This document shows, piece after piece, positions 5,065-35,963 of a stretch of 39,869 nt of DNA. The stretch's first letter is position 1, and each line of letters begins with the position of its first letter. The translations under genes were made by a program, and so were the position numbers. This stretch comes from Candidatus Nomurabacteria bacterium RIFCSPHIGHO2_01_FULL_36_23 (GTDB lineage: Bacteria > Patescibacteriota > Minisyncoccia > Phycocordibacterales > UBA9973). The stretch covers positions 1 to 39,869 of the forward strand of contig MFTF01000008.1 of NCBI GenBank assembly GCA_001786745.1. Reading direction: 5' to 3'. The notes beneath the pieces were generated by a model. The model had not been told where the DNA came from and ran no database searches. It saw only the letters and a list, made by a program, of their open reading frames with translations.

Positions 5065-5832
5065 TTAGATTTTGGTCAAAATTTCTGGCCCATCGTTTGT
5101 AATAAGGATAGTATGCTCAAAATGCGCGCTGGGTTTCCCGTCAGCTGTGCGAAAAGTATAACCATCTTTGTCTAATGTTACATTTTTTGTGCCCGCGTTT
5201 AACATGGGTTCCAGCGCGATTACCATACCCGGAACAAGCTTCACGCCTGTTCCCTTTTTTCCAAAATTAGGAATATAAGGGTCTTCGTGGATTGTTCGCC
5301 CAACACCATGCCCCGAAAGAACTTCTACAATTCCGTATCCATGGGGACGCACGAAATTTTCAATGCTGTCACCAATATCGCCAACTGTATTGCCCGCTAC
5401 GGCTATATTGATGCCTGCCTGTAAAGCTTGTTCGGTAATTTTCAGGAGCTTGGCGGCAGAGGCGCTCACGGCGCCGACCGGCGCCGTGAGCGCCATGTCC
5501 GTAAAAAGACCCTTATGTTTCAGGCCTAAATCAAGCGCAACAATATCGCCTTCTTTTAAAATTCGCTTGGGGCTTGGAATGCCGTGCACTACTTCATCAT
5601 TGACTGAGACACATAAAGACGCAGGAAATGGCATCTTGGCTCCTTCGGGACGATAATTTAAAAATGCCGGCTCATCGCCCATTTCTCTAATCAGTTTAGT
5701 GGCATATGTATCCAAATCTTTTGTAGAAACTCCAGGCGCCACTTTTTCTTTTATTTTATGAAGTATGGTCGCCAAACGCTTTCCGCCTTCTCGTAGTATT
5801 TCTATTTCTTCCGGTGTTTTAATGACAATCAT
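5065..5832 (-). CDS. map: type I methionine aminopeptidase
   Basis: 255 aa, with VVHGIP, DIVALDLG, FTDMA, SGHGVGR and HFEHT motifs. Sits in the canonical position after adk. Confidence 0.95.
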   Translation of the reverse strand: MIVIKTPEEIEILREGGKRLATILHKIKEKVAPGVSTKDLDTYATKLIREMGDEPAFLNYRPEGAKMPFPASLCVSVNDEVVHGIPSPKRILKEGDIVALDLGLKHKGLFTDMALTAPVGAVSASAAKLLKITEQALQAGINIAVAGNTVGDIGDSIENFVRPHGYGIVEVLSGHGVGRTIHEDPYIPNFGKKGTGVKLVPGMVIALEPMLNAGTKNVTLDKDGYTFRTADGKPSAHFEHTILITNDGPEILTKI

Positions 5833-9364: not shown

Positions 9365-9442
9365 CCCATTATAAATTTTAATTAATAATTTTTATTTACT
9401 ATACCCCCCGTTTGCTGAATTTATAACGGGAAAAGTATATTT

Positions 9443-9784: not shown

Positions 9785-9837
9785 TGTTTTGTGATAGAGT
9801 TTTAGCCTCTTTATAGAGTCTAAACCTCTATCTCCTT

Positions 9838-10389: not shown

Positions 10390-10397
10390 ATAATTTT

Positions 10398-10438
10398 TCA
10401 GGTGTTGGACACCCGTAAAACAGGTGTCCAACACCTGA
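10398..10438. repeat. family-A palindromic element, copy A1 (rpsH/rplF spacer)
   Basis: TCAGGTGTTGGACACC (10398-10413) pairs with GGTGTCCAACACCTGA (10423-10438) around a 9-nt loop. The element begins 1 nt after the rpsH stop and ends 8 nt before the rplF ATG. Confidence 0.9.
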
Positions 10439-10439
10439 A

Positions 10440-10856
10440 CTACCAAATTCTAAATAATGCTTCGCCCCCGACTTGTTCTTTTCGCGCTTCTTTGCCTGAT
10501 AAAATTCCTTTGGGTGTTGAAAGCACAAGAAGCCCCGATCCGTTTCTAACCGAATGAATATCTTTCATTCTAAAATAAACACGACGAGACTGTTTTGAGA
10601 TTCTCTCTACCTCTGTAATTTTTGGCTTTTTATCCATATAAATCAATCCGACCTCAAGTATTGGCTGATTTTTTTTTTCGCCCGAGGCGGATTCGCCTTT
10701 GGCGGAAATTTTTTTTGAAATAGAACCCACATATCCTTCTTTTTTCAAACATTCCGCAATGGCATTTTTTATTTTAGAATACGGAAAAAATACAGCTTCT
10801 TTACCAGCCAAGCTTCCATTCTTCATTATTATTATCATGTTTGAAATTGAATCCAT
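10440..10856 (-). CDS. rpsH: 30S ribosomal protein S8
   Basis: MDSISNMIIIMKNG...GGEALFRIW. ATG 10856 is preferred over track start 10895, which lies inside the repeat. Confidence 0.9.
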   Translation of the reverse strand: MDSISNMIIIMKNGSLAGKEAVFFPYSKIKNAIAECLKKEGYVGSISKKISAKGESASGEKKNQPILEVGLIYMDKKPKITEVERISKQSRRVYFRMKDIHSVRNGSGLLVLSTPKGILSGKEARKEQVGGEALFRIW

Positions 10857-10863
10857 AATATTT

Positions 10864-10896
10864 CGGGTGTTGGACACCCGACAGATGTCCAACACC
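10864..10896. repeat. family-A palindromic element, copy A2 (rpsN/rpsH spacer; distal unit degenerate)
   Basis: CGGGTGTTGGACACCCG (10864-10880) plus GATGTCCAACACC (10884-10896). The rpsN stop codon (10896-10898) overlaps the last base of the element. Confidence 0.85.
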
Positions 10897-11081
10897 TACC
10901 AACTTGACTTGCGAACACCTGGGAGCATCCCCTCATTCGCCAATTCTCGAAAACAGATACGACACAAACCAAAATCCCTTATAAAAGCATTACCTCGACC
11001 ACAGCGAAAACATCGGTTTTTTTGCCGAGTGCTAAACTTCGGTTTCTTTTTACTTCTTGCGACAACTGATGTTTTTGCCAT
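10896..11081 (-). CDS. rpsN: 30S ribosomal protein S14, zinc-binding type Z
   Basis: 61 aa with [20 protein letters not shown] (CxxC...CxxC). Confidence 0.9.
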
Positions 11082-11187
11082 AATTAAAATCGCCTATTTG
11101 TATAGATGATATCGTGTATCTTTTCTTAAAACTTTATTAAATAAGCCTTAAGGAGAAATACAGATCAACCTATTTTTAGACTTTTTT

Positions 11188-11216
11188 ATAATAGCAAATT
11201 TAAGAAAAATAGTCAA
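11188..11216 (-). promoter_or_regulatory. sigma70-like promoter TTGACT-17-TATTAT upstream of rpsN
   Basis: Minus strand reads TTGACT atttttcttaaatttgc TATTAT, about 105 nt before the rpsN ATG. It shares TTGACTATTT with the copies at 18343-18352 and 37337-37346. Confidence 0.45.
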
Positions 11217-11230
11217 TAAAAATCCCCGAT

Positions 11231-11273
11231 AGCAAGGACAGTCCAGAGAGAAGTAGTAAGGACTGTCTTTGCT
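11231..11273. repeat. 14-bp inverted repeat downstream of the pilin gene
   Basis: AGCAAGGACAGTCC (11231-11244) pairs with GGACTGTCTTTGCT (11260-11273) with one G:T position and a 15-nt loop. Confidence 0.6.
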
Positions 11274-11305
11274 ACATGTTGCTACATGCTACACTTCTTG
11301 CTACA
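11270..11305. repeat. four direct TGCTACA heptamers (TGTAGCA on the minus strand)
   Basis: Copies at 11270-76, 11280-86, 11287-93 and 11299-11305, just 3' of the pilin stop codon. Confidence 0.7.
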
Positions 11306-11335
11306 CTTTTCTATTACTTTTCTGGAGTCGTAAAA

Positions 11336-11839
11336 TTAATATACTCCTAAATCCCTCACATATCGGAGACTATCATTCCAACAATCTAGATATCGTGTAT
11401 AAGAACCCCCAGGAGCTTCTAGCTCGGTAAATAGTAGATAATGACCATTGAGACTGCAAGTTGCATATTGACCATAATTTACGCCACTAGTTCTGCCTGC
11501 AATATACCAATGGCCGTTGTAAACACTAGTATTTAGAGGATCTATGGGCATACTGGATATATAATTGTTAGTAATAAGATCGGATGAAAATTGTGGGGTC
11601 CAAGGTACCCCGTTATAGGTATTACCGTCACTAGGAAAAATCCCCTTATCAGTGTAATAAGATAAAATTGCTACTTCCAGGGTGTGTAGATCTGATTTTC
11701 TTCTTGCATCCCGTGCTTTAGCTCTAGCCGACCCTAAAGAAGCAAAAACGACAGACGAAAGCAAACTAATGATAGCAACTACTACAAGTAGTTCTATGAG
11801 GGTAAAACCTTTTTTAAATACATTCTTTTTTGTTTGCAT
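11336..11839 (-). CDS. type IV pilin/pseudopilin-like protein (prepilin N-terminal methylation motif)
   Basis: MQTKKNVFKKGFTLIELLVVVAIISLLSSVVFASL. ATG 11839 is preferred over track start 11941. Confidence 0.8.
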   Translation of the reverse strand: MQTKKNVFKKGFTLIELLVVVAIISLLSSVVFASLGSARAKARDARRKSDLHTLEVAILSYYTDKGIFPSDGNTYNGVPWTPQFSSDLITNNYISSMPIDPLNTSVYNGHWYIAGRTSGVNYGQYATCSLNGHYLLFTELEAPGGSYTRYLDCWNDSLRYVRDLGVY

Positions 11840-11846
11840 GTAATTT

Positions 11847-12134
11847 TTACTGTATAAACTGTGATTGATCAATATTAATCGGTATTGGTGTTGTTTTTTT
11901 TGTTCCCCCAAAAAACAAATAAGCTGAAATAAGGAAAGCAATTACAGCAAAAGCCAGAAGAAAATATTCCGCTTGTCTTTCATCTTTAATCACTCCGCCA
12001 GAATACTTTGTTACCCATCCCACGATTTTTGGAGTGGCTGTTTCGCGATAATACTTCACCGCTTTCCAACTGTTAGTGTCAGTTTCGGTGTCAGTGTCAA
12101 ATTTTACGTCTGATGCTTTATTGTTTTGATCCAT
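11847..12134 (-). CDS. small single-pass membrane protein, unknown function
   Basis: 95 aa with an acidic N-terminus and one TM helix (YFLLAFAVIAFLISAYLFF). Lies 7 nt upstream of the pilin gene. Confidence 0.5.
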   Translation of the reverse strand: MDQNNKASDVKFDTDTETDTNSWKAVKYYRETATPKIVGWVTKYSGGVIKDERQAEYFLLAFAVIAFLISAYLFFGGTKKTTPIPINIDQSQFIQ

Positions 12135-12145
12135 AGATAGTATAT

Positions 12146-12173
12146 ATTATATATCAACCTTAAAAAATTGCAA
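12146..12173 (-). promoter_or_regulatory. sigma70-like promoter TTGCAA-16-TATAAT for the membrane-protein/pilin pair
   Basis: Minus strand reads TTGCAA ttttttaaggttgata TATAAT, then 11 nt to ATG 12134. Confidence 0.5.
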
Positions 12174-12244
12174 AAAGTTATCAACACATGAAGTTATCCA
12201 TAAAAACAAAAGCTTTTATTTTTTCTTCTCCCCGCCGGCAAAAG

Positions 12245-12841
12245 CTATGCTTTGGCATTGCGGACAGGTTCTTCCTTTTTGAAAGGAATACCCAATAACT
12301 TAAAGAAGGCACTGCCTTCTTTTTTGTTCTTAGCGCTGGAAACGAGGGTAATAGACATGCCAAAAACATCTCGAATGTCTTCGTCGGCTGTTTCTGGAAA
12401 AATAGTATGCTCTTTTATGCCGATAGTTAGATTGCCCATATTATCCACTGCCTTACGAGCAATACCACGAAAATCCTTTGTACGAGGAAGAGCAACATTT
12501 ATAAGCTTCTCTAAAAAAGCATACATTCGGTTGCCTCGCAAGGTAACAACAATCCCGATCGGATCACCTTGACGAATTTTGAAGGAAGCGATTGATTGCT
12601 TGGCACCCCTTAAAGCTGATTTTTGTCCGGTAATTTTTGCTAAACGATCTCCGATAACATCATTTTTATTCTTATCTTTCTTAATAGCAGTACCAGTGCC
12701 TACATTGATCACAATTTTCTGCATCCTAGGCGTAGCCATAGTATTTTTATAATTGAAAACACTTTTCATTTTCTCAAATGCTTCCATTTCTTTTTCTTTT
12801 ACAGTTAAATGTTTCGTCATATGTTTTATTTGCATATTCAA
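12245..12841 (-). CDS. rplE: 50S ribosomal protein L5
   Basis: PRMQKIVINVGTG...SFKIRQGDPIGIVVTLRG. The start is ambiguous (12841, 12835 or 12820) and overlaps the rplX stop. Confidence 0.95.
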   Translation of the reverse strand: MNMQIKHMTKHLTVKEKEMEAFEKMKSVFNYKNTMATPRMQKIVINVGTGTAIKKDKNKNDVIGDRLAKITGQKSALRGAKQSIASFKIRQGDPIGIVVTLRGNRMYAFLEKLINVALPRTKDFRGIARKAVDNMGNLTIGIKEHTIFPETADEDIRDVFGMSITLVSSAKNKKEGSAFFKLLGIPFKKEEPVRNAKA

Positions 12842-13056
12842 TCTATTTTCTTAACATTTGAAGCATGTATCGGCATTGCAATATTTATCATTGATCCCTT
12901 TTCTCCGGACTTTCTGGGACGCTGGTGTTTTTTCATCATATTCAATCCCTCTAAAATTACTTTATTTTCACTAACCAAAACACGGATAATTTTACCCTTT
13001 TTGCCTTTATCTTTGCCTGTTATTATGATCACATTGTCTCCTTTTTTTATGTGCAT
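12838..13056 (-). CDS. rplX: 50S ribosomal protein L24 (short)
   Basis: MHIKKGDNVIIITGKDKGKKGKIIRV, a KOW motif. Confidence 0.9.
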   Translation of the reverse strand: MHIKKGDNVIIITGKDKGKKGKIIRVLVSENKVILEGLNMMKKHQRPRKSGEKGSMINIAMPIHASNVKKID

Positions 13057-13068
13057 TGTATGTATTCC

Positions 13069-13103
13069 AGGTGTTGGACACCTGTTTCAGGTGTCCAACA
13101 CCT
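13069..13103. repeat. family-A palindromic element, copy A3 (rplN/rplX spacer)
   Basis: AGGTGTTGGACACCTG - ttt - CAGGTGTCCAACACCT, with 16-bp perfect arms. Confidence 0.9.
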
Positions 13104-13112
13104 TATATTAAC

Positions 13113-13484
13113 TTAAATCACCTCTTGCGCCAAGGAAATTATTTTCTGAAAACCTTTCTCGGCGAGCTCTCTCGGAATTGGTCCAAAAACACGTCCAGCT
13201 TTTGGATCAAGTTTGTCTTTTTCTAAAATAACCACGGCATTATCATCAAAACGAATATAAGATCCGTCTTTCCTTCTGTAGGCACTTCTAGTACGCACGA
13301 CAACAGCTTGATGTATATCCTTCTTTTTAACGCCTTTTCTGGGACTCGCGACTTTTACTGAAATAACTACCAACTCACCGAGAGTCGCATATCTCTTCTT
13401 GGAACTCCCTAAAATCTTAAACACCTTTCCTAGGGTGCCTCCAGCATTGTCTGTTATTTTTACCAATGTTTCATTTTGTATCAT
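13113..13484 (-). CDS. rplN: 50S ribosomal protein L14
   Basis: MIQNETLVKITDNAGG...AVVVRT...IRFDDNAVV. Confidence 0.97.
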   Translation of the reverse strand: MIQNETLVKITDNAGGTLGKVFKILGSSKKRYATLGELVVISVKVASPRKGVKKKDIHQAVVVRTRSAYRRKDGSYIRFDDNAVVILEKDKLDPKAGRVFGPIPRELAEKGFQKIISLAQEVI

Positions 13485-13488
13485 AAAA

Positions 13489-13746
13489 TTAAATTACTTT
13501 AAATCTCTTATCTTTTGAAATCGGTTTTGTTTCCATTATTTTTACCATATCTCCTGTTTTGTGTTTATTTTCCTCATCATGCGCTTTGTATTTCTTATTA
13601 ACTTTATAAAATTTTCCATATAAAGGATGTTTAATAAATCTGGAAACGGAAACAACAACGGTCTTATCCATTTTATCTGAAACAACCATTCCCCTTAAGA
13701 TGTTTCCTTTATTTTCTATATTGTTTTGTTTTACTTTTATTTTCAT
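13489..13746 (-). CDS. rpsQ: 30S ribosomal protein S17
   Basis: [27 protein letters not shown]...YKAHDE. Confidence 0.9.
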
Positions 13747-13791
13747 TATATTTACTTTATGAACTTTATAACCCTGCCGGCAGACAGGTTT

Positions 13792-13983
13792 CTACTTTTT
13801 ATGGTTTATTTCTGTCAATATTCTAGCTATTTGTTTTTTAAAATTTCCCAATTCTTTTACATTTTTCGACTTTGACCCTTCGGATTTAAATCTTATAACT
13901 CTTATTTTCTCCTGTAAAACAGCAAGCTCTTTCTTAAGCTCGTTTATTTTTATTTCTTTTAAATTTTCTTTTTTCTTTGTCAT
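13792..13983 (-). CDS. rpmC: 50S ribosomal protein L29
   Basis: 63 aa, LKELKINELKKELAVLQEKI, between rplP and rpsQ. Confidence 0.85.
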   Translation of the reverse strand: MTKKKENLKEIKINELKKELAVLQEKIRVIRFKSEGSKSKNVKELGNFKKQIARILTEINHKK

Positions 13984-13990
13984 ACTTATT

Positions 13991-14009
13991 TCGGGTGTTG
14001 GACACCCGA
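13991..14009. repeat. family-A element, single unit, copy A4 (rplP/rpmC spacer)
   Basis: TCGGGTGT-TGG-ACACCCGA. On the mRNA strand the unit plus the spacer to the ATG nearly matches the proximal half of A2. Confidence 0.85.
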
Positions 14010-14020
14010 CGGATTTAATT

Positions 14021-14449
14021 TTACTGTTTGTGAACTCTAGAAATAATTCTAGCTTTAATCGGCAGTTTAGTGCCGGCTTTTCTTAATGCTTCATGGGCAA
14101 TTTTTTCCTCTACCCCATCCACTTCAAAAATAATACGCCCGGGCAAAACATCAAAACAATATCCCTGTGGGTCTCCTTTTCCTTTTCCCATACCCATTTC
14201 TGCGGCCTTGGAAGTATAGGGGCGATCCGGGAAAATTCGAATCCAATATTTGCCGACCTTAGTCAGCGTTCGAGATATTACTTTTCTGGCGGCTTCAAGC
14301 TGGATGGATTTCACGCGCGCTTGCGTCTCTGATTTTAGACCAAAAGAACCAAAAGCCAGCTTACTTCCCCTCGTGTCCGACGTTATTGTCTTCGGATTCG
14401 AGCGCATGGTCTGCCATTTTCTAAATTTTACTTTTTTGGGTAATAACAT
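14021..14449 (-). CDS. rplP: 50S ribosomal protein L16
   Basis: MLLPKKVKFRKWQ...MGKGKGDPQGY. Confidence 0.95.
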   Translation of the reverse strand: MLLPKKVKFRKWQTMRSNPKTITSDTRGSKLAFGSFGLKSETQARVKSIQLEAARKVISRTLTKVGKYWIRIFPDRPYTSKAAEMGMGKGKGDPQGYCFDVLPGRIIFEVDGVEEKIAHEALRKAGTKLPIKARIISRVHKQ

Positions 14450-14493
14450 GGCTAATTTTTAATGAGCGAAGCGATTATAAAAATCGCCACCCC
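14450..14493 (-). promoter_or_regulatory. motif C copy 1: conserved 44-nt block with a 6-bp hairpin immediately upstream of rplP
   Basis: Minus strand reads GGGGTG GCGATT-TTTAT-AATCGC TTCGCTCATTAAAAATTAGCC ATG. It aligns without gaps to 37150-37193, matching at 32 of 44 positions. Confidence 0.6.
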
Positions 14494-14593
14494 GCCCCAC
14501 TTTATTAATTACTTTTATATTAACATTATTCATAATTTTTTTAATTTATTTTCCTTTACCACTATAAACTAATCAATAAAGTGGGGCTGGGGT
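14489..14593. repeat. MITE-like unit: ~22-bp terminal inverted repeats flanking a 60-nt AT-rich core (rpsC/rplP spacer)
   Basis: ACCCCGCCCCACTTTATTAATT (14489-14510) pairs with AATCAATAAAGTGGGGCTGGGGT (14571-14593), with one bulge and one mismatch. Confidence 0.6.
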
Positions 14594-14607
14594 TTCAAAA
14601 AACATAG

Positions 14608-15279
14608 TCACTTCGTTCCTTGTTTTTGTGAAAAAATTTTACCGCGGTAAATCCAAACTTTTATACCCACAACGCCATATGATAGTGTGGCTCGCTCACG
14701 CTTAAAATCTATGTCCGCGCGAAAAGTCTGAAGCGGAATAGAGCCCCGTTTGAGTTCTTCTGTGCGAGCAATATCGGCCCCGCCCAACCTGCCCGAGAGA
14801 ACTATTCTGGCGCCTTCTACTTCGCGCGCTGTCATAACTTTTTCAATAATTGTTTTGATAACTCGACGGTAGGGCATTCTTTTCTCTAATCCTTCGGCAA
14901 TCATATATGCCACAATCGCGGCATCAGCTTCTGGGTTTGAAACTTCAATAATTTCAAGTTTAAAATCTTCTGGCTTTACAAGTTTCAATTTATCCATTTT
15001 CTTTAAAATATCTTCCTTAAGCTTAGTGGCGCCTTCACCATTTCGACCAATGATAAGCCCCGGTCGAGAAGTTCTAATGATAAATCTAGTGGCTTTTCTA
15101 CTTCTTTCAATTTCAATTGTAGATATATACATACCTCGTAATTTCTTTTCCAAATATTGACGTATGAGAACATCCCCTTTTAAGTAAGAAATATATTTCT
15201 TCGGGTCAGCAAACCAACGAGATTTCCAGTCTCTTAATATAATCAATCTATGGGCATATGGGTGAACTATTTTACTCAT
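14608..15279 (-). CDS. rpsC: 30S ribosomal protein S3
   Basis: MSKIVHPYAHRL...GRLGGADIARTE. 15291 is an alternative start. Confidence 0.95.
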   Translation of the reverse strand: MSKIVHPYAHRLIILRDWKSRWFADPKKYISYLKGDVLIRQYLEKKLRGMYISTIEIERSRKATRFIIRTSRPGLIIGRNGEGATKLKEDILKKMDKLKLVKPEDFKLEIIEVSNPEADAAIVAYMIAEGLEKRMPYRRVIKTIIEKVMTAREVEGARIVLSGRLGGADIARTEELKRGSIPLQTFRADIDFKRERATLSYGVVGIKVWIYRGKIFSQKQGTK

Positions 15280-15280
15280 G

Positions 15281-15649
15281 TTACTTTTCAAGAACGGTTC
15301 TTTTATTACTTTTCTTTACTGCCATTACCTTTTCTCCTAATACTAAATTTAAATGGCTTGTGCGTTTATTTATCCTGTGCCCCGTGCCCATAGCCGCTGG
15401 CATCATTCTTTTCATGGTTATGCCTTTATCCACTCGCAATTCTTTTATAAATAAATTTTCTTTTTCTATTCCCGTTTGTTTCGCATTAGCAACCGCTGAA
15501 AGTAAAAGCTTCTTAATCGGAAAACCGGCGCGCTTCGCCAAAAAATCAAGCTCGGCAATGGCTTCTTCCACATTTTTCCCCCTAATTAATCCAGCCACTA
15601 AACGAACTTTTCTGGGAGACTGTCTGTAATTTTTTAAAAATGCTCGCAT
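15281..15649 (-). CDS. rplV: 50S ribosomal protein L22
   Basis: MRAFLKNYRQSPRKVRLVAGLIRG. ATG 15649 is preferred; track start 15697 lies inside the repeat. Confidence 0.9.
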   Translation of the reverse strand: MRAFLKNYRQSPRKVRLVAGLIRGKNVEEAIAELDFLAKRAGFPIKKLLLSAVANAKQTGIEKENLFIKELRVDKGITMKRMMPAAMGTGHRINKRTSHLNLVLGEKVMAVKKSNKRTVLEK

Positions 15650-15664
15650 TGTTTTATTTATTTC

Positions 15665-15699
15665 AGGTGTTGGACACCTGAAACAGGTGTCCAACACCT
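15665..15699. repeat. family-A palindromic element, copy A5 (rpsS/rplV spacer)
   Basis: AGGTGTTGGACACCTG - aaa - CAGGTGTCCAACACCT. This is the exact reverse complement of the A3 core, yet it has the same 3' flank (TATATTA). Confidence 0.9.
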
Positions 15700-15709
15700 T
15701 ATATTATAA

Positions 15710-16060
15710 TTATTTAGTCTTTTTTGCATCAGCTGTGACCTCGGTCGCGGATTTGGCTTGAATTATTTCAGCTTCTTTTTTCTTTTGTTCCAGTTCTTTC
15801 TGCATTTTTCCACCATGTTTTGTAAATTTTCTAGTCGAAGAAAATTCCCCCAATCTATGCCCGACCATGTCTTCAGTAATTAAAACTTCTATATGAGTTT
15901 TGCCATTATGAACGGCAAAAGTAAAGCCCAGCATTTCAGGAGATATAACACAAGCTCTTTTCCAGGTCTTGATAACTGGGGTTTGTAACGGATTTTTACC
16001 AGCAATCTTTTTGAGTAGCTTTTCATCCACATATATGCCTTTTTTGATTGATCGAGTCAT
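15710..16060 (-). CDS. rpsS: 30S ribosomal protein S19 with a Lys/Glu-rich C-terminal extension
   Basis: MTRSIKKGIYVDEKLLKKI...HNGKTHIEVLITEDMVGHRLGEF. Confidence 0.95.
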   Translation of the reverse strand: MTRSIKKGIYVDEKLLKKIAGKNPLQTPVIKTWKRACVISPEMLGFTFAVHNGKTHIEVLITEDMVGHRLGEFSSTRKFTKHGGKMQKELEQKKKEAEIIQAKSATEVTADAKKTK

Positions 16061-16110
16061 ATGTGATTTTCCTGTACAAACAAAACGGCTCTCATTTGAG
16101 CCTTAAAATT

Positions 16111-16138
16111 ATAGTAGCAAATTAAGGAATAATGTCAA
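16111..16138 (-). promoter_or_regulatory. sigma70-like promoter TTGACA-16-TACTAT (or -19-TATAAT) upstream of rpsS
   Basis: Minus strand reads TTGACA ttattccttaatttgc TACTATAAT. It resembles the rpsN promoter (CTTAA(A)TTTGCTAYTATAA). Confidence 0.45.
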
Positions 16139-16202
16139 TTGTTGTTACATTAAGTAAGAATAGCGATGGGGCACCCGATATTACTCAGAGTGCCCCACTC
16201 AA

Positions 16203-16328
16203 TCATCGCCCGTTTTTCTTCTTTGGTTGCCACCTTTTTCTGGGTGGCCTTTTTTTCCCATCCCTGAAAAGCCACCTCGCTCTCACGTATGTGGGAGCCC
16301 CCAAAAAAGCTTTTGACGCCCTAGACAT
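16203..16328 (-). CDS. candidate sORF: 41-aa highly basic peptide in the rplB-rpsS spacer
   Basis: AAAGGAGGA lies 10 nt upstream of ATG 16328. Translation: MSRASKAFLGAPTYVRARWLFRDGKKRPPRKRWQPKKKNGR*. Too short for the ORF track, and no homology recognised. Confidence 0.25.
   Translation of the reverse strand: MSRASKAFLGAPTYVRARWLFRDGKKRPPRKRWQPKKKNGR
16229..16256 (+). terminator. intrinsic-terminator-like hairpin plus T7 run on the plus strand, antisense to the sORF
   Basis: GCCACC-tttttctg-GGTGGC followed by CTTTTTTT. No convincing plus-strand promoter upstream. Confidence 0.3.
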
Positions 16329-16398
16329 AGGGATTTGTCCTCCTTTTCATAATATTTATAACATTTCAACAAAATAAATCAAGTAAAAATGTGGGTAG

Positions 16399-17241
16399 TT
16401 ACTTATTCTTCCCAATTCTGCGCCTTGAGATGATAAAAACATTTGAGTATTTCTTCGGACCACGAGTTTTGCGTCCGCCAGTAACCTTGCCCCACATTGT
16501 CTTTGGGCGCTTGGTTCCGCGTCCTTGCCGACCTTCCCCGCCTCCGTATGGATGATCAACCGGGTTCATGGCAGTTCCGCGAACTGTTGGTCTTATTCCC
16601 TTCCAACGAGAGCGCCCAGCTTTACCATAATTTTCCAAATGATGCTCTTCGTTAGAAACAGTACCAATGGAAGCCCAGCAGTTTTCATTTATTTTTCTGA
16701 TTTCAGTTGAAGGCATTTTAAGATTGGCGTACCCGTCAGCATTGGCAATTACTTGGGCAAAAATTCCTGCCGAACGACCAATTTTCGCGCCACCTTGTGG
16801 TTTTATTTCAATATTATAAACAAAAGTTCCGACTGGAATATTTTTAAGGGGCAACCTATTGCCCGCCACAAGTGGAGCTTTTGGAGAAACAATAAAAGAG
16901 TCCCCGGATTTAACAGATTTTGGTAATACCACATATCTTTTTTCTCCATCTTTGTAGACAGCCAATCCGATAAAAGCTGAACGATTTGGGTCATATTCCA
17001 CAGATTTTATCTTGGCTGGAATTTCTTTTTTATCGTATAAAAAATCAATCTCGCGATACAGGCGCTTGTGTCCTCCGCCTTTGTGCCTCATAGTGATCCG
17101 TCCCTGACTGTTACGCCCAACCGAACGTTTAAAACCATAGGTTAGAGATTTTGTCGGTAAAGACTTTTTTGTTAAAACGTCACGATAGGTGACATTCGTC
17201 ATTTGTCTTCTGGATTTACTTGTGGGTTTGTAGGTTTTCAT
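16399..17241 (-). CDS. rplB: 50S ribosomal protein L2
   Basis: GRNSQGRITMRHKGGGHKR...MNPVDHPYGGGEGR. Confidence 0.97.
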   Translation of the reverse strand: MKTYKPTSKSRRQMTNVTYRDVLTKKSLPTKSLTYGFKRSVGRNSQGRITMRHKGGGHKRLYREIDFLYDKKEIPAKIKSVEYDPNRSAFIGLAVYKDGEKRYVVLPKSVKSGDSFIVSPKAPLVAGNRLPLKNIPVGTFVYNIEIKPQGGAKIGRSAGIFAQVIANADGYANLKMPSTEIRKINENCWASIGTVSNEEHHLENYGKAGRSRWKGIRPTVRGTAMNPVDHPYGGGEGRQGRGTKRPKTMWGKVTGGRKTRGPKKYSNVFIISRRRIGKNK

Positions 17242-17250
17242 AAATATGTT

Positions 17251-17287
17251 TTAGGTGTTGGACACCTATCAGGTGTCCAACACCTAA
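17251..17287. repeat. family-A palindromic element, copy A6 (rplW/rplB spacer)
   Basis: TTAGGTGTTGGACACCT - atc - AGGTGTCCAACACCTAA, with 17-bp arms. The rplW stop codon (17284-17286) lies inside the element. Confidence 0.9.
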
Positions 17288-17559
17288 ATAAATTCAATTT
17301 TGTCGCCCTTCTTTAAATAAACAAGAGCCTTTCTGCCTCCGCCCCTGACACCCATTTTTCCTTTGGAAACAATGTGTTTTCTGGGTATTGATAAAATATT
17401 TACTTTAACAGGATTTATTTTATAAAGCGTAAATACAGCTTTCTTTATTTCTGTTTTGTTGGCAGAAGAAGAGACATCAAAGGTGTAGATATTATGTTCT
17501 TGGGTAAAAGAAGCTTTTTCTGTAACTCTTGGATTTTTAATAATTGTTTTTATGGTCAT
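17284..17559 (-). CDS. rplW: 50S ribosomal protein L23
   Basis: MTIKTIIKNPRVTEKA...YTFDVSSSANKTEIKKAV. ATG 17559 is preferred over track start 17613. Confidence 0.9.
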   Translation of the reverse strand: MTIKTIIKNPRVTEKASFTQEHNIYTFDVSSSANKTEIKKAVFTLYKINPVKVNILSIPRKHIVSKGKMGVRGGGRKALVYLKKGDKIEFI

Positions 17560-17578
17560 ATAATTTCTTGCGAAGATT

Positions 17579-17618
17579 CCTAGGTGTTGGACACCTTTTA
17601 AGGTGTCCAACACCTAGG
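17579..17618. repeat. family-A palindromic element, copy A7 (rplD/rplW spacer)
   Basis: CCTAGGTGTTGGACACCTT - tt - AAGGTGTCCAACACCTAGG, with 19-bp arms. Confidence 0.9.
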
Positions 17619-18359: not shown

Positions 18360-18575
18360 TTACAAGCTCCGTTCTTTAATTTCTGCGTCTCTTAAGATAT
18401 TTTTTAGAATTTTGGGATGAATTATTTTTGATGCATGATTCGGAATAGTAATGCGAACTCCTTTTTTATTATAAAAAATCATATGGCTTCCACTCTGGCG
18501 GGACAGAGAAAATCCTTTAGATTCTATAATTTTCCTAATCTGTCGAGCGGTGAAACGTAAAGATTTAGGGGACAT
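18360..18575 (-). CDS. hicA: HicA-family mRNA interferase toxin
   Basis: 71 aa, ...KGFSLSRQSGSHMIFYNKKGVRITIPNHASKIIHPKILKNILRDAEI. Confidence 0.8.
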   Translation of the reverse strand: MSPKSLRFTARQIRKIIESKGFSLSRQSGSHMIFYNKKGVRITIPNHASKIIHPKILKNILRDAEIKERSL

Positions 18576-18578
18576 GAG

Positions 18579-18809
18579 CTATGCTACTGCAATCTGAAAA
18601 TTAGAAAGACTGAAAGATCTTTCCGGGGCATTTAATTTTTCTCTTCTTGCCGTTCTATCTTCCAAATTAAGCTTAATAGCGTCTTTGATATTTTTTACCA
18701 CCTCTTCATATGTCTTGCCCTGTGTATAGCAGCCCTGCAAATCCAAACACTCGGCCACAAAGCCGTTTTTATCTTGCTCTATAATGACTGAAAAATTTTG
18801 AATTTTCAT
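18579..18809 (-). CDS. hicB: HicB-family antitoxin (UPF0150 fold)
   Basis: 76 aa, FSVIIEQDKNGFVAECLDLQGCYTQGKTYEEVVKNIKDAI. Lies 3 nt upstream of hicA. Confidence 0.8.
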   Translation of the reverse strand: MKIQNFSVIIEQDKNGFVAECLDLQGCYTQGKTYEEVVKNIKDAIKLNLEDRTARREKLNAPERSFSLSNFQIAVA

Positions 18810-19083: not shown

Positions 19084-19106
19084 TAATTTCATTAGCTAGA
19101 TACCGT

Positions 19107-19129
19107 AGATAGCGCCTAAGGCGCTATCT
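19107..19129. repeat. perfect 10-bp palindrome with 3-nt loop overlapping the rplC stop codon
   Basis: AGATAGCGCC-taa-GGCGCTATCT. The rplC stop codon (19124-19126) lies in the right arm. Confidence 0.8.
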
Positions 19130-27428: not shown

Positions 27429-27468
27429 AACTATACATATATACGCGATAGCGTATATATGTATAGTT
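27429..27468. repeat. palindrome P1: 18-bp perfect inverted repeat with 4-nt loop, downstream of the Cas2-fold gene
   Basis: AACTATACATATATACGC-gata-GCGTATATATGTATAGTT. Confidence 0.9.
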
Positions 27469-27869: not shown

Positions 27870-27899
27870 TACATATATACGCTATAGCGTAAATGTGTA
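27870..27899. repeat. palindrome P2: imperfect copy of P1 over the promoter of the Cas2-fold gene
   Basis: TACATATATACGCTATAGCGTAAATGTGTA shares the ACATATATACGC..GCGTA core with P1. Confidence 0.8.
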
Positions 27900-34740: not shown

Positions 34741-35272
34741 ATTTGTAGTGTAATAGAATTGTGCCTTTTTTATTAAGTTTTTTTATGGATTGTAAAGAAA
34801 ATTTATATTTTTTAAATGTGTTGCTGGAAAACATTGGTATTCCATTGGTAAAAATATAAGGTTCAATCGTCACAAAAAGTTCGTCAAGCATTTTATTGGC
34901 AAGACAAAAATTATACACTTTCGGTCCGCCTAATATAGCCACCTTTTTATATCCTTTACTACTAAGAAACTTTTTTAAATTGGATTTTTCGGGATTGAAA
35001 AAAATTACTTTGTCTTTTATTTTTGCTCTGTTAATTTTAGAGGTTAATACTATCGTATTTCTTCTTCTGAGACGATCTGCGGTAATTTTGTAAGTATTGC
35101 GACCGACAATAACAGCATCCATTTTTACCAAAGACTTTTGGAAAAAATTCCAGTCTTCTTTGCTCGTCCAACCCACATTAGATTGACTGCTTTTTGATAT
35201 GCGTCCGTCAATACTGCTCGCGATATAAGCGATGTAGGTCACCTTATGCGGTAACTTACCTTTTTGTTTCAT
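34730..35272 (-). CDS. RibD C-terminal domain / DHFR-like reductase
   Basis: YIASSIDGRI...DAVIVGRNTY...ILGGPKVYNFCL...DELFVTIEPYIF. Confidence 0.7.
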   Translation of the reverse strand: MKQKGKLPHKVTYIAYIASSIDGRISKSSQSNVGWTSKEDWNFFQKSLVKMDAVIVGRNTYKITADRLRRRNTIVLTSKINRAKIKDKVIFFNPEKSNLKKFLSSKGYKKVAILGGPKVYNFCLANKMLDELFVTIEPYIFTNGIPMFSSNTFKKYKFSLQSIKKLNKKGTILLHYKYGN

Positions 35273-35963
35273 GGCGAAATACGCCTAAGAGATATTTCTG
35301 ATCAATAAAAAAACCAAGATTTAAGATATGCTTTTTTTCTAAGAAAGCTAAAATATTGTTAACCAAAATAAAAGAAATGGCAATGCCAAGGGCAAAAAAT
35401 ATACGTTCTAGCGCTACAATTGGCATCAGCGAAATCCAAATTGGCGCTGGCAAGGCAAAAACCCAAATCCATAAAGCGCCGCCGACCGCATGAGCGGTAA
35501 AAGTGGCGCCAAGCGCTCGCGCTAAAAGAAACTTGTCATAGAAAAAATAAGCAATAATTGGAATAGTCCAGAAAAGTGAAAAGTACCAAACTTCTCTGCC
35601 AATAGGATGAGCGATGAAAACTATAATTGCGATTAATGGAATAATAATATTAAATTTTCCTTTCCGAGCGAAATACAATACAGCAAAAAGCATTGGTAGA
35701 AAACGAATAATTGTCCCAGCATCTTCTATTACAGCTCCGTGCGCTAAGAAATTAAAAAATTGCATAAAAAACACAGCAATTACTCCAGGGATACTGCCGA
35801 TGAAAATTCCAGCCATGGGCGCGAAGGCATCATATATCATAAACTTCGTTTTTGATCCTTCTAATTGGGTCACTGGAATCTGCAACGTGATAAATCCCAA
35901 AACTATAAAAACAGCAATAAAAAGAACATTTTTCTTTGTAAAATATTGTTTAATGTTTGACAT
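35256..35963 (-). CDS. multi-pass membrane protein, possibly an ECF-type substrate-capture (S) component
   Basis: 235 aa with about 6 hydrophobic helices. The functional guess rests only on topology and the neighbouring cofactor genes. Confidence 0.4.
   Translation of the reverse strand: MSNIKQYFTKKNVLFIAVFIVLGFITLQIPVTQLEGSKTKFMIYDAFAPMAGIFIGSIPGVIAVFFMQFFNFLAHGAVIEDAGTIIRFLPMLFAVLYFARKGKFNIIIPLIAIIVFIAHPIGREVWYFSLFWTIPIIAYFFYDKFLLARALGATFTAHAVGGALWIWVFALPAPIWISLMPIVALERIFFALGIAISFILVNNILAFLEKKHILNLGFFIDQKYLLGVFRHETKR

Follow-up and report, generated by a model that had tools for sequence, protein, structure and literature searches.

We studied a 39,869-nt stretch of Candidatus Nomurabacteria DNA (contig MFTF01000008.1, positions 1 to 39,869; hereafter the window) in which the S10-spc ribosomal-protein (r-protein) genes lie on the minus strand and seven of the spacers between them hold copies of a short palindromic element. 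The window has a G+C content of 34-41% and a steady GC skew. Its L2 protein was identical on ten near-identical contigs from Rifle aquifer metagenomes, and the 90%-identity cluster of this protein consisted of Candidatus Nomurabacteria and other Parcubacteria/Patescibacteria proteins. For the reasons given below we read the seven elements, with a probability of roughly 0.85, as six REPINs (inverted doublets of repetitive extragenic palindromes, REPs) and one REP singlet, members of a mobile family of the Candidate Phyla Radiation (CPR) that pairs REPs with a REP-associated tyrosine transposase (RAYT).

A scan of the window for GGTGTYSRACACC, allowing up to one mismatch, gave 13 matches spanning 10401-17614, against 0.03 expected by chance (100 dinucleotide-preserving shuffles). 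A search by structure over the 39.9 kb, for TTGGA/TCCAA enclosed in hairpins of 5 bp or more, returned these units alone (shuffle mean 0.36). The 13 units make up six inverted doublets, with arms that are 90-100% complementary, and one singlet; each of the seven sites lies between the stop codon of the upstream r-protein gene and the next start (Table 1). An earlier reading of the window from its letters alone (the sequence-only reading) had described just this arrangement, i.e., six two-unit copies and a single one between r-protein stops and starts and none elsewhere in the 39.9 kb, and both scans bear it out. That all seven sites fall at r-protein junctions has a hypergeometric p of about 2e-4, a post hoc figure based on 18 S10-spc r-protein/r-protein junctions among the ~54 junctions of the window. 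An Rfam scan of the whole window at gathering thresholds gave no match to curated families, r-protein leader motifs included, and a tRNA/tmRNA scan of the window found nothing.

Each unit folds as a hairpin whose loop is TGG or CCA and whose GGTGT/ACACC stem is usually prolonged by 2-5 variable but complementary pairs; two inverted units 5-10 nt apart form a near-perfect palindrome of 35-45 nt. In the window doublets the extended arms measure 14-21 nt with 2-4 nt between them. The 20-bp stem of the S8/L6 copy has a single U.G pair when read on the mRNA strand, the second unit of the S14/S8 copy has one mismatch that also yields U.G on that strand, and the L16/L29 singlet has an 8-bp stem and the loop CCA. 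The DNA fetched from related genomes and metagenomes (loci with L numbers) held 124 doublets and 20 singlets, the latter undercounted because loci were fetched by the doublet pattern. The order TGG...CCA was kept in 124 of 125 doublets, with the two 13-mers 18-26 bp apart centre to centre and an inter-unit spacer that was most commonly 9 nt and often contained GATTC or GAATTC. Sequences flanking the 13-mers were variable yet complementary, with a mean outer stem extension of 4.2 bp versus an estimated ~0.3 bp by chance, and among 104 copies the flanking dinucleotides were CG..CG in 54, CA..TG in 19 and TA..TA in 7. Direct target-site duplications were not found among the family copies: the flanks are inverted, except for the self-complementary CG and TA. 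All six frames of the element are free of stop codons.

According to the sequence-only reading, moreover, GGUGUCCAACACC is the proximal unit on the mRNA strand in every copy. This statement carries no strand information, since a doublet of a TGG unit followed by a CCA unit is its own reverse complement and the CCA unit is therefore proximal on either strand. Within the window, the strands can be told apart by nothing but the singlet, the loops and the two G.U pairs; at the imperfect S8/L6 and S14/S8 pairs the opposite strand has A.C.

Table 1 Positions of the palindromic elements read as REP sequences: the seven copies between minus-strand r-protein genes of the window and copies at the shared gatB site of related loci
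Feature	Site	Positions	Detail	RNA fold (kcal/mol)
REP doublet	rpsH(S8)/rplF(L6) spacer	10397-10439	units 10401-10413, 10423-10435	-38.7 (z -8.4)
REP doublet	rpsN(S14)/rpsH(S8) spacer	10863-10898	units 10866-10878, 10884-10896	-23.7
REP doublet	rplN(L14)/rplX(L24) spacer	13069-13103		-32.3
REP singlet TCGGGTGTCCAACACCCGA	rplP(L16)/rpmC(L29) spacer	13991-14009	minus (mRNA) strand	-12.3
REP doublet	rpsS(S19)/rplV(L22) spacer	15660-15704	core 15665-15699	-29.8
REP doublet	rplW(L23)/rplB(L2) spacer	17250-17288	L23 TAG stop within stem	-32.6
REP doublet	rplD(L4)/rplW(L23) spacer	17579-17618	perfect 19-nt stem	-40.8 (z -9.1)
GatB-site copies	gatB of related loci	L026 3262-3297; L032 2156-2191; L033 5368-5403; L064 10398-10443	proteins P0137-P0256	

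Two upstream stop codons, the TAGs of S14 and L23, overlap the element, as had been noted before. Open reading frame (ORF) calls begin too early inside it at four genes, S8, L22 and L23 from GTG and L6 from TTG. The four false N-terminal extensions that the sequence-only reading had ascribed to a GTG in the element were thus confirmed, with TTG as the start codon in the case of L6. The GTG inside the L4/L23 copy is the cause of L23 being called as 109 aa instead of 91 aa in public gene calls.

Orthologous spacers of close relatives lack the element. In L058, L060 and L061, whose L2 proteins are at least 90% identical to that of the window, a generic hairpin scan found no such hairpin anywhere in the S10-spc clusters, and the spacers at the seven junctions measured 1-31 nt compared with 37-60 nt in the window. 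The L23/L2 spacer, for example, has 3-4 nt in L058 and L060 versus 42 nt in the window, the S8/L6 spacer 5-11 nt in the relatives versus 50 nt, and the S19/L22 spacer 1 nt in L060 and 26 nt in L058 versus 60 nt. The converse case is the L6/L18 junction, which carries a doublet in L014, L016, L021 and L024 and is empty of it in the window. The point of insertion at S14/S8 also varies: the window copy begins in the stop codon and that of L021 lies 6 nt downstream. On these comparisons, the window copies are insertions and not conserved sites.

A search for the exact doublet, allowing 0-30 nt between the units, found it in 39 stretches from ~20 GTDB species representatives, all of them CPR, in records titled Nomurabacteria, Paceibacteria/Paceibacterota, Patescibacteria or Saccharibacteria. 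None of these stretches has six doublets, and the species of the window is absent from the GTDB representatives with a match. JGI metagenomes contributed another 110 stretches; sample 3300002502, in which the window strain occurs, is not among the 80 of them that were listed. The total thus came to ~150 stretches of Nomurabacteria/Paceibacteria (CPR) DNA, with several contigs per metagenome-assembled genome (MAG). The doublet had no match in the viral contigs searched, which leaves a phage origin without support, and a role as DNA uptake sequence was ruled out by a density that is far too low (~one doublet per 8-kb stretch, in stretches preselected for having one). When 98 unique copies were sorted by context, ~45 lay in long ORFs, ~20 in S10-spc spacers, ~27 in other intergenic regions and 6 at contig edges; these figures include 7 copies in short antisense ORFs that the context classifier had over-called as being in an ORF and that were re-sorted by hand through r-protein matches. 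The S10-spc copies were spread over 8 different junctions in several species. The tie to the S10-spc operon drawn by the sequence-only reading thus held as a bias towards r-protein spacers, seen in relatives too, and failed as exclusivity, since ~78% of the unique copies in related genomes lay outside r-protein operons. That reading had further suggested that the element is a processing site, a coupling switch or a protein operator of the operon. Because the element is missing from relatives' spacers and, as a dispersed REP family, is largely spread through non-ribosomal DNA, about half of it in ORFs of unrelated genes, which comes close to both outcomes that the sequence-only reading had itself named as refuting it, and because it is associated with a transposase (see below), such a role is unsupported as its primary nature.

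The intragenic copies were found in housekeeping genes, namely gatB, gatA (amidase), mnmA, rsmH and those for Mur ligase, trigger factor and class V aminotransferase, where they add 11-16 codons to the protein. All three frames are used (peptides GVGH.., VLDT.., CWTP.., ..VSNT and ..CPTP), so it is the nucleotide sequence that is conserved and not the peptide. In this respect the family is not extragenic as the definition of a REP asks, with ~45 of 92 classifiable copies in frame within ORFs; the seven window copies are extragenic. Alignment of the MnmA of L025 with the solved MnmA structure left a gap of 10 residues that coincides exactly with the peptide encoded by the element. The clearest series was found in GatB. 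The 120 closest homologues were either 474-477 aa (empty) or 484-518 aa (filled), and nearly all the extra residues occurred at one position, after EDTANNKH. At the DNA level the filled sites of L026, L032 and L033 showed a net gain of 14-26 codons relative to the empty site of L063. This position is empty in many species; in others it holds a REPIN of the window type or of another sequence type, or else decayed copies. The outer stems of two orthologous copies at the site differ from each other by compensatory substitutions. Comparable shared insertion sites were present in MnmA, RsmH, GatA and Mur ligase.

An ORF of ~219 aa in L049 and L011 has units on both sides in inverted orientation, and four distinct RAYT loci (L011, L049, L050-53 and L147) are flanked by a unit of the window type. 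The protein matched the Pfam family Y1_Tnp (IS200-like transposase) with 27.5-27.9 bits against a cut-off of 23. It had 3022 homologues at E<=1e-10; the named ones came from Patescibacteria, Paceibacterota, Nomurabacteria and Zambryskibacteria, and some were already labelled REP-associated tyrosine transposase or RayT by NCBI/JGI. The motif H81-F82-H83 (HFH) and several tyrosines were invariant in the homologue alignment. An AlphaFold model (pLDDT 86, pTM 0.83) had as its top Foldseek match in the PDB the chain 4ER8_A (E 1.1e-4, probability 1.0, target-normalised TM 0.66), the E. coli REP-associated tyrosine transposase bound to its REP hairpin (PMC3479197), and ranks 2-19 were IS608 and ISDra2 TnpA structures. 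The L050 locus comes from Rifle aquifer assemblies, the same series as the window strain. In it, CGGGTGTCCAACACCCG lies 39 nt upstream of the RAYT start and an inverted unit 9 nt past the gene end, and this upstream 17-mer is identical to the central 17-mer of the window singlet.

The hairpin stem covaries with the transposase lineage. Around RAYT homologues with 67-76% identity, the flanking hairpins keep the loop and change the stem, as in L054/55 (CGGACGT-TGG-ACGTCCG) and L056/57 (GGTAGAGGT-TGG-ACCTCTACC). Among nine units, hand-picked from six lineages, 6 of 10 stem pairs had changed on both sides and 93% of cells were paired; this score was reached by none of 500 shuffles, and slid registers gave 25-44% pairing. 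The RAYT ORF itself holds an in-frame REP hairpin at codons ~60-66 (L050 10181-10199, L054 467-483, L049 ~1392-1410), in a low-confidence loop of the predicted structure. This internal hairpin matches the flanking type in three lineages, being of the GGTGT type in L050 and L049 and of the GGACGT type in L054, and is degenerate in L056 and L011. The gene order RAYT, 203-208-aa gene, large Ig-like surface protein, rplJ and rplL is conserved in L050-53 and L056/57, and a similar gene of ~206-226 aa follows RAYT in L011 and L049. This neighbourhood upstream of rplJ-rplL suggests vertical inheritance, though not necessarily a single copy. More distant Y1 paralogues were present in L024, L058 and L063. 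The one at 664-1299 of L058 is flanked by a hairpin of its own, CCACGGAGG-N5-CCTCCGTGG, and so is that at 14845-15516 of L063, with GCGTTAGGTCTTGCCTAACGC; several REP-RAYT lineages thus appear to exist in this clade.

The closest reference systems are the REP/REPIN-RAYT systems of Proteobacteria, such as the REPs and bacterial interspersed mosaic elements of E. coli with YafM/TnpA-REP and the REPINs of Pseudomonas fluorescens (PMC3116915, PMC5581495), in which a guide tetranucleotide, GTAG or CGTC, stands at the hairpin foot (PMC3733652, PMC6006769). The CPR family shares with them short palindromic units arranged mainly as inverted doublets that fold as one long hairpin, dispersed copies that include intercistronic spacers of operons, cognate units flanking a Y1/HUH gene in a conserved neighbourhood of several relatives, and a stem that co-evolves with the transposase lineage. 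It differs from them in that the doublets are 35-45 nt long instead of about 70-110 nt, copies per genome are few, no GTAG/CGTC guide is conserved, about half of the copies lie within genes, in frame, and the ~219-aa transposase has a C-terminal helical extension and is too diverged for the NCBIfam equivalog or for a sequence search of the PDB. Our literature search found no paper pairing RAYT or REPIN with Patescibacteria. Two other kinds of element are partly similar. Like the CPR element, Rickettsia palindromic elements (PMC10969869) are palindromes inserted in frame in housekeeping genes of a reduced genome, at a tolerated loop; however, they measure about 100-150 bp instead of 35-48 nt, use one frame with a conserved peptide and have no known cognate transposase, whereas the CPR element is translated in three frames and is paired with a RAYT. 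The IS200/IS605 elements (IS608, ISDra2) share the Y1 HUH fold and the use of subterminal DNA hairpins as recognition elements, but they are autonomous, with asymmetric ends and a defined target tetranucleotide, whereas the CPR gene is seemingly fixed in one neighbourhood and it is the hairpin doublets that are dispersed.

As for the mechanism, the RAYT would recognise the hairpin where DNA is single-stranded, be it at a replication fork or in a region of heavy transcription, and would move or copy the doublets. Copies would then survive where the harm is small, i.e., in the intercistronic spacers of long co-transcribed operons and in surface loops of proteins. In the window, copies were inserted into seven S10-spc spacers, and the transcripts would form very stable hairpins between cistrons. 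Any effects on mRNA stability, on RNase III cleavage or on ribosome release at the two overlapped stops would be secondary, as for the REPs of E. coli.

Several observations weigh against a mobile REP-RAYT family. The ten near-identical strain contigs share identical copies, with no sign of recent movement, and the copy number appears low, roughly 2-7 exact doublets per MAG versus hundreds in Pseudomonas or E. coli. The guide tetranucleotide GTAG/CGTC is not conserved at the hairpin foot, where the flank is just YR; GTAG was seen solely in a variant of one MAG (L020, L047, L049). The transposase scored 26.5 bits with the NCBIfam RAYT equivalog NF047646, for which the cut-off is 80, and PDB sequence searches with single sequence and profile gave no meaningful match; for both reasons we regard it as a distant RAYT-like lineage and not as an equivalog of the E. 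coli enzyme. A tblastn search of the window for RAYT gave noise alone, and no RAYT gene is present in the 39.9 kb. With a RAYT flanked by the unit in related genomes, the partner of the window organism is likely encoded elsewhere in its genome. A purely selfish model does not account for the concentration in r-protein spacers: of the 47 intergenic copies, ~20 (about 43%) lie in a cluster estimated to hold a few per cent of the genome's junctions, a roughly ten-fold excess that is inflated by the shared ancestry of copies. Nor does such a model account for the reuse of one GatB site by at least three REP sequence types across lineages. Both the enrichment in r-protein spacers and the recurrent hot spots of in-frame insertion are real. 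The junctions between r-protein genes may be unusually permissive or exposed, e.g., as single-stranded DNA in a heavily transcribed region, because in relatives these very spacers also contain six or more further families of small repeats.

In a variant of the mobile-family reading, which we consider possible though unlikely, the REPIN-RAYT pair of these reduced CPR genomes is a domesticated, site-directed system and more than a tolerated parasite. It would repeatedly deliver or replace doublets at a small set of preferred sites, namely the spacers between r-protein cistrons and particular loops in essential genes such as gatB and mnmA, the RAYT could regulate itself through its own hairpin, and the r-protein copies could have been co-opted as RNA hairpins. 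Such hairpins would set mRNA processing, stability or decoupling in operons without Shine-Dalgarno sequences. This variant fits with the several REP types at a single GatB codon position, with the RAYT-internal REP that tracks the flanking type and with the spacer excess.

At the RNA level, the predicted folds of the six doublets ranged from -23.7 to -40.8 kcal/mol with z from -3.2 to -9.1 (Table 1), and the downstream start codon was unpaired in 6 of the 7 folds. What follows the hairpins on the mRNA strand is an A-rich leader and not the U tract of an intrinsic terminator, and the terminator reading was rejected; the L23/L2 copy alone passed a lax T-count rule. Promoter-like sites lie at other junctions, upstream of rpsS and rpsN among others, so the hairpins sit inside transcription units. 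These sites read TTGACA-16-TACTAT at 16138-16111 and TTGACT-17-TATTAT at 11216-11188, and a similar TTGAC...TATGAT occurs at the same junctions in L058 and L016; they suggest that the cluster comprises several transcription units. The 10-25 nt before most r-protein starts are A/T-rich and devoid of Shine-Dalgarno-like sequence, and the AGGTG of the units, 20-40 nt upstream of the starts, is too far away for a Shine-Dalgarno role. REPs of E. coli protect upstream cistrons from 3' exonucleases and affect translation where the stop codon is near the REP. By analogy, and by analogy only as regards the stable inter-cistron hairpins of which two overlap the upstream stop, the window hairpins could protect upstream cistrons from 3' exonucleases or be RNase III substrates, and could hinder termination where the stop codon sits in the stem (S14, L23). 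They probably affect the polycistronic mRNA as a secondary effect.

The same data bear on the reading of the element as a dedicated cis-acting RNA element of r-protein operons, either a processing or stability site (for RNase III cleavage or protection of the 3' end of the upstream cistron) or a translation-uncoupling switch in an organism that makes no use of Shine-Dalgarno sequences, which we judge improbable. The share of intergenic copies found at eight S10-spc junctions of several species, the very stable predicted hairpins that nearly always leave the start codon free, the A-rich leaders without Shine-Dalgarno motifs before most genes and the single terminator-like copy in the sense direction are in its favour, as is the placement of G.U on the mRNA strand by both imperfect window stems, although two out of two has a p of merely 0.25. 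However, close relatives have the same spacers without the element, about half of the family is inside the ORFs of unrelated genes and in three frames, and the element flanks a transposase gene with which it covaries; moreover, several unrelated repeat families occupy the same spacers in relatives, which indicates that the spacers are permissive and not that this element is special.

Less probable again is an ordinary miniature inverted-repeat transposable element (MITE), that is, a deletion derivative of a DDE-type insertion sequence (IS) reduced to its terminal inverted repeats. The form of the element, two inverted 13-mers with little between them, would suit such an origin, and DDE (rve) transposase genes do occur in these populations, e.g., at the left end of L005 and L006 and in L064. 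Nevertheless, target-site duplications are lacking and the flanks are inverted, no parent IS with GGTGTTGGACACC ends was seen in the fetched loci, and the single units are themselves hairpins that flank a Y1 gene. The least probable alternative is a double-stranded DNA operator, in which the 13-mer GGTGT-N3-ACACC would be the dyad site of a dimeric repressor or nucleoid protein, two per spacer: the dyad symmetry is perfect and strictly conserved across species and the paired sites are 18-26 bp apart, but they lie between co-transcribed genes and within ORFs instead of at promoters, their variable but complementary flanks and compensatory stem changes preserve a hairpin and not a duplex recognition sequence, and an HUH enzyme that acts on single-strand DNA is the sole conserved partner found among proteins.

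Read as a mobile REP-RAYT family, the window elements extend to the CPR a type of system so far described mainly in Proteobacteria. Persistent repeats are unexpected in the very small, gene-dense CPR genomes, yet here they are kept between r-protein genes and inside essential genes. With an element of 35-45 nt and an enzyme of 219 aa, this compact system would be a convenient model for target choice in single-strand hairpin transposition, and would also suit the question of whether the host comes to profit from such elements. Annotation is affected as well: the element creates false start codons, leaving L23 18 residues too long in public data, and the 11-16 residues added to GatB, MnmA and RsmH could pass for lineage-specific features of these proteins.

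Other small repeats were seen in the S10-spc cluster of the window and its relatives. The rpsC/rplP spacer (14450-14607) contains a 158-nt non-coding insert with the inverted repeat CCCCAGCCCCACTTT...AAAGTGGGGCGGGGTGG. Its two diagnostic ends were absent from the near-identical strain contigs L001, L002, L003, L007 and L009; in L001, read directly, the rpsC/rplP spacer measures 4 nt and S3 ends in a longer C-terminus that differs from that of the window. The S17/L14 spacer of L061 and L062 is occupied by a related element of ~157 nt, and the insert appears to be MITE-like and polymorphic among strains. AGATAG-N-TTTAG/TAAAG-N-CTATCT, a second hairpin family, was found in the rplF/rplR spacer (9785-9837) and after the rplC stop (~19100-19125), where it overlaps the ...AGATAG end of L3; it also occurs in L058 and L061 (L3/L4) and in L060 (L3/L4, L6/L18 and L30/SecY). 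The rplR/rpsE spacer (9365-9442) holds a 78-nt element, TTTTCCCGTTATAAATT...ACGGGG...AAAATTATTAATTAAAATTT, with similar copies in L021 (S17/L14), L014 (L24/L5) and L061 (L5/S14). In L061, an element of 140-210 nt, GTGAAAATTAATGAACG...TACCCTGTTAAATAA...TTTAACAGGGTGT, lies in at least four r-protein spacers and TCCGCCGAAATTTTTCAC...TTTAGGCGGAT in three; the r-protein spacers of L062, too, are colonised by other repeat families. Other palindromic doublets were present in the S10-spc cluster of L014 and L030, and AATTACGAATT repeats in that of L024. In Nomurabacteria, small repeats in general seem to find a refuge in the S10-spc operon.

The cluster of the window also contains a HicB/HicA toxin-antitoxin pair between rplC and rplD (18360-18809), a pilin-like gene (N_methyl) with a 95-aa ORF between rplE and rpsN (11336-12134), and a 338-nt non-coding stretch between rplB and rpsS (16061-16398). 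Elsewhere, an ORF of 235 aa without a Pfam match (35256-35963) comes right after rplK (L11), at the expected place of rplA (L1). The methionine aminopeptidase gene (map) carries at 5461-5494 a perfect 16+16-nt GC-rich palindrome, GGCGCTCACGGCGCCG..CGGCGCCGTGAGCGCC, in a genome of 37% G+C; it is not a simple in-frame insertion of another family, as there was no length change relative to solved structures of the enzyme. Upstream of fusA (27429-27468) lies a perfect 18+18-nt AT-rich inverted repeat, AACTATACATATATACGC/GCGTATATATGTATAGTT, and a related palindrome, TACATATATACGCTAT, was found near rpsG at 27870-27899.

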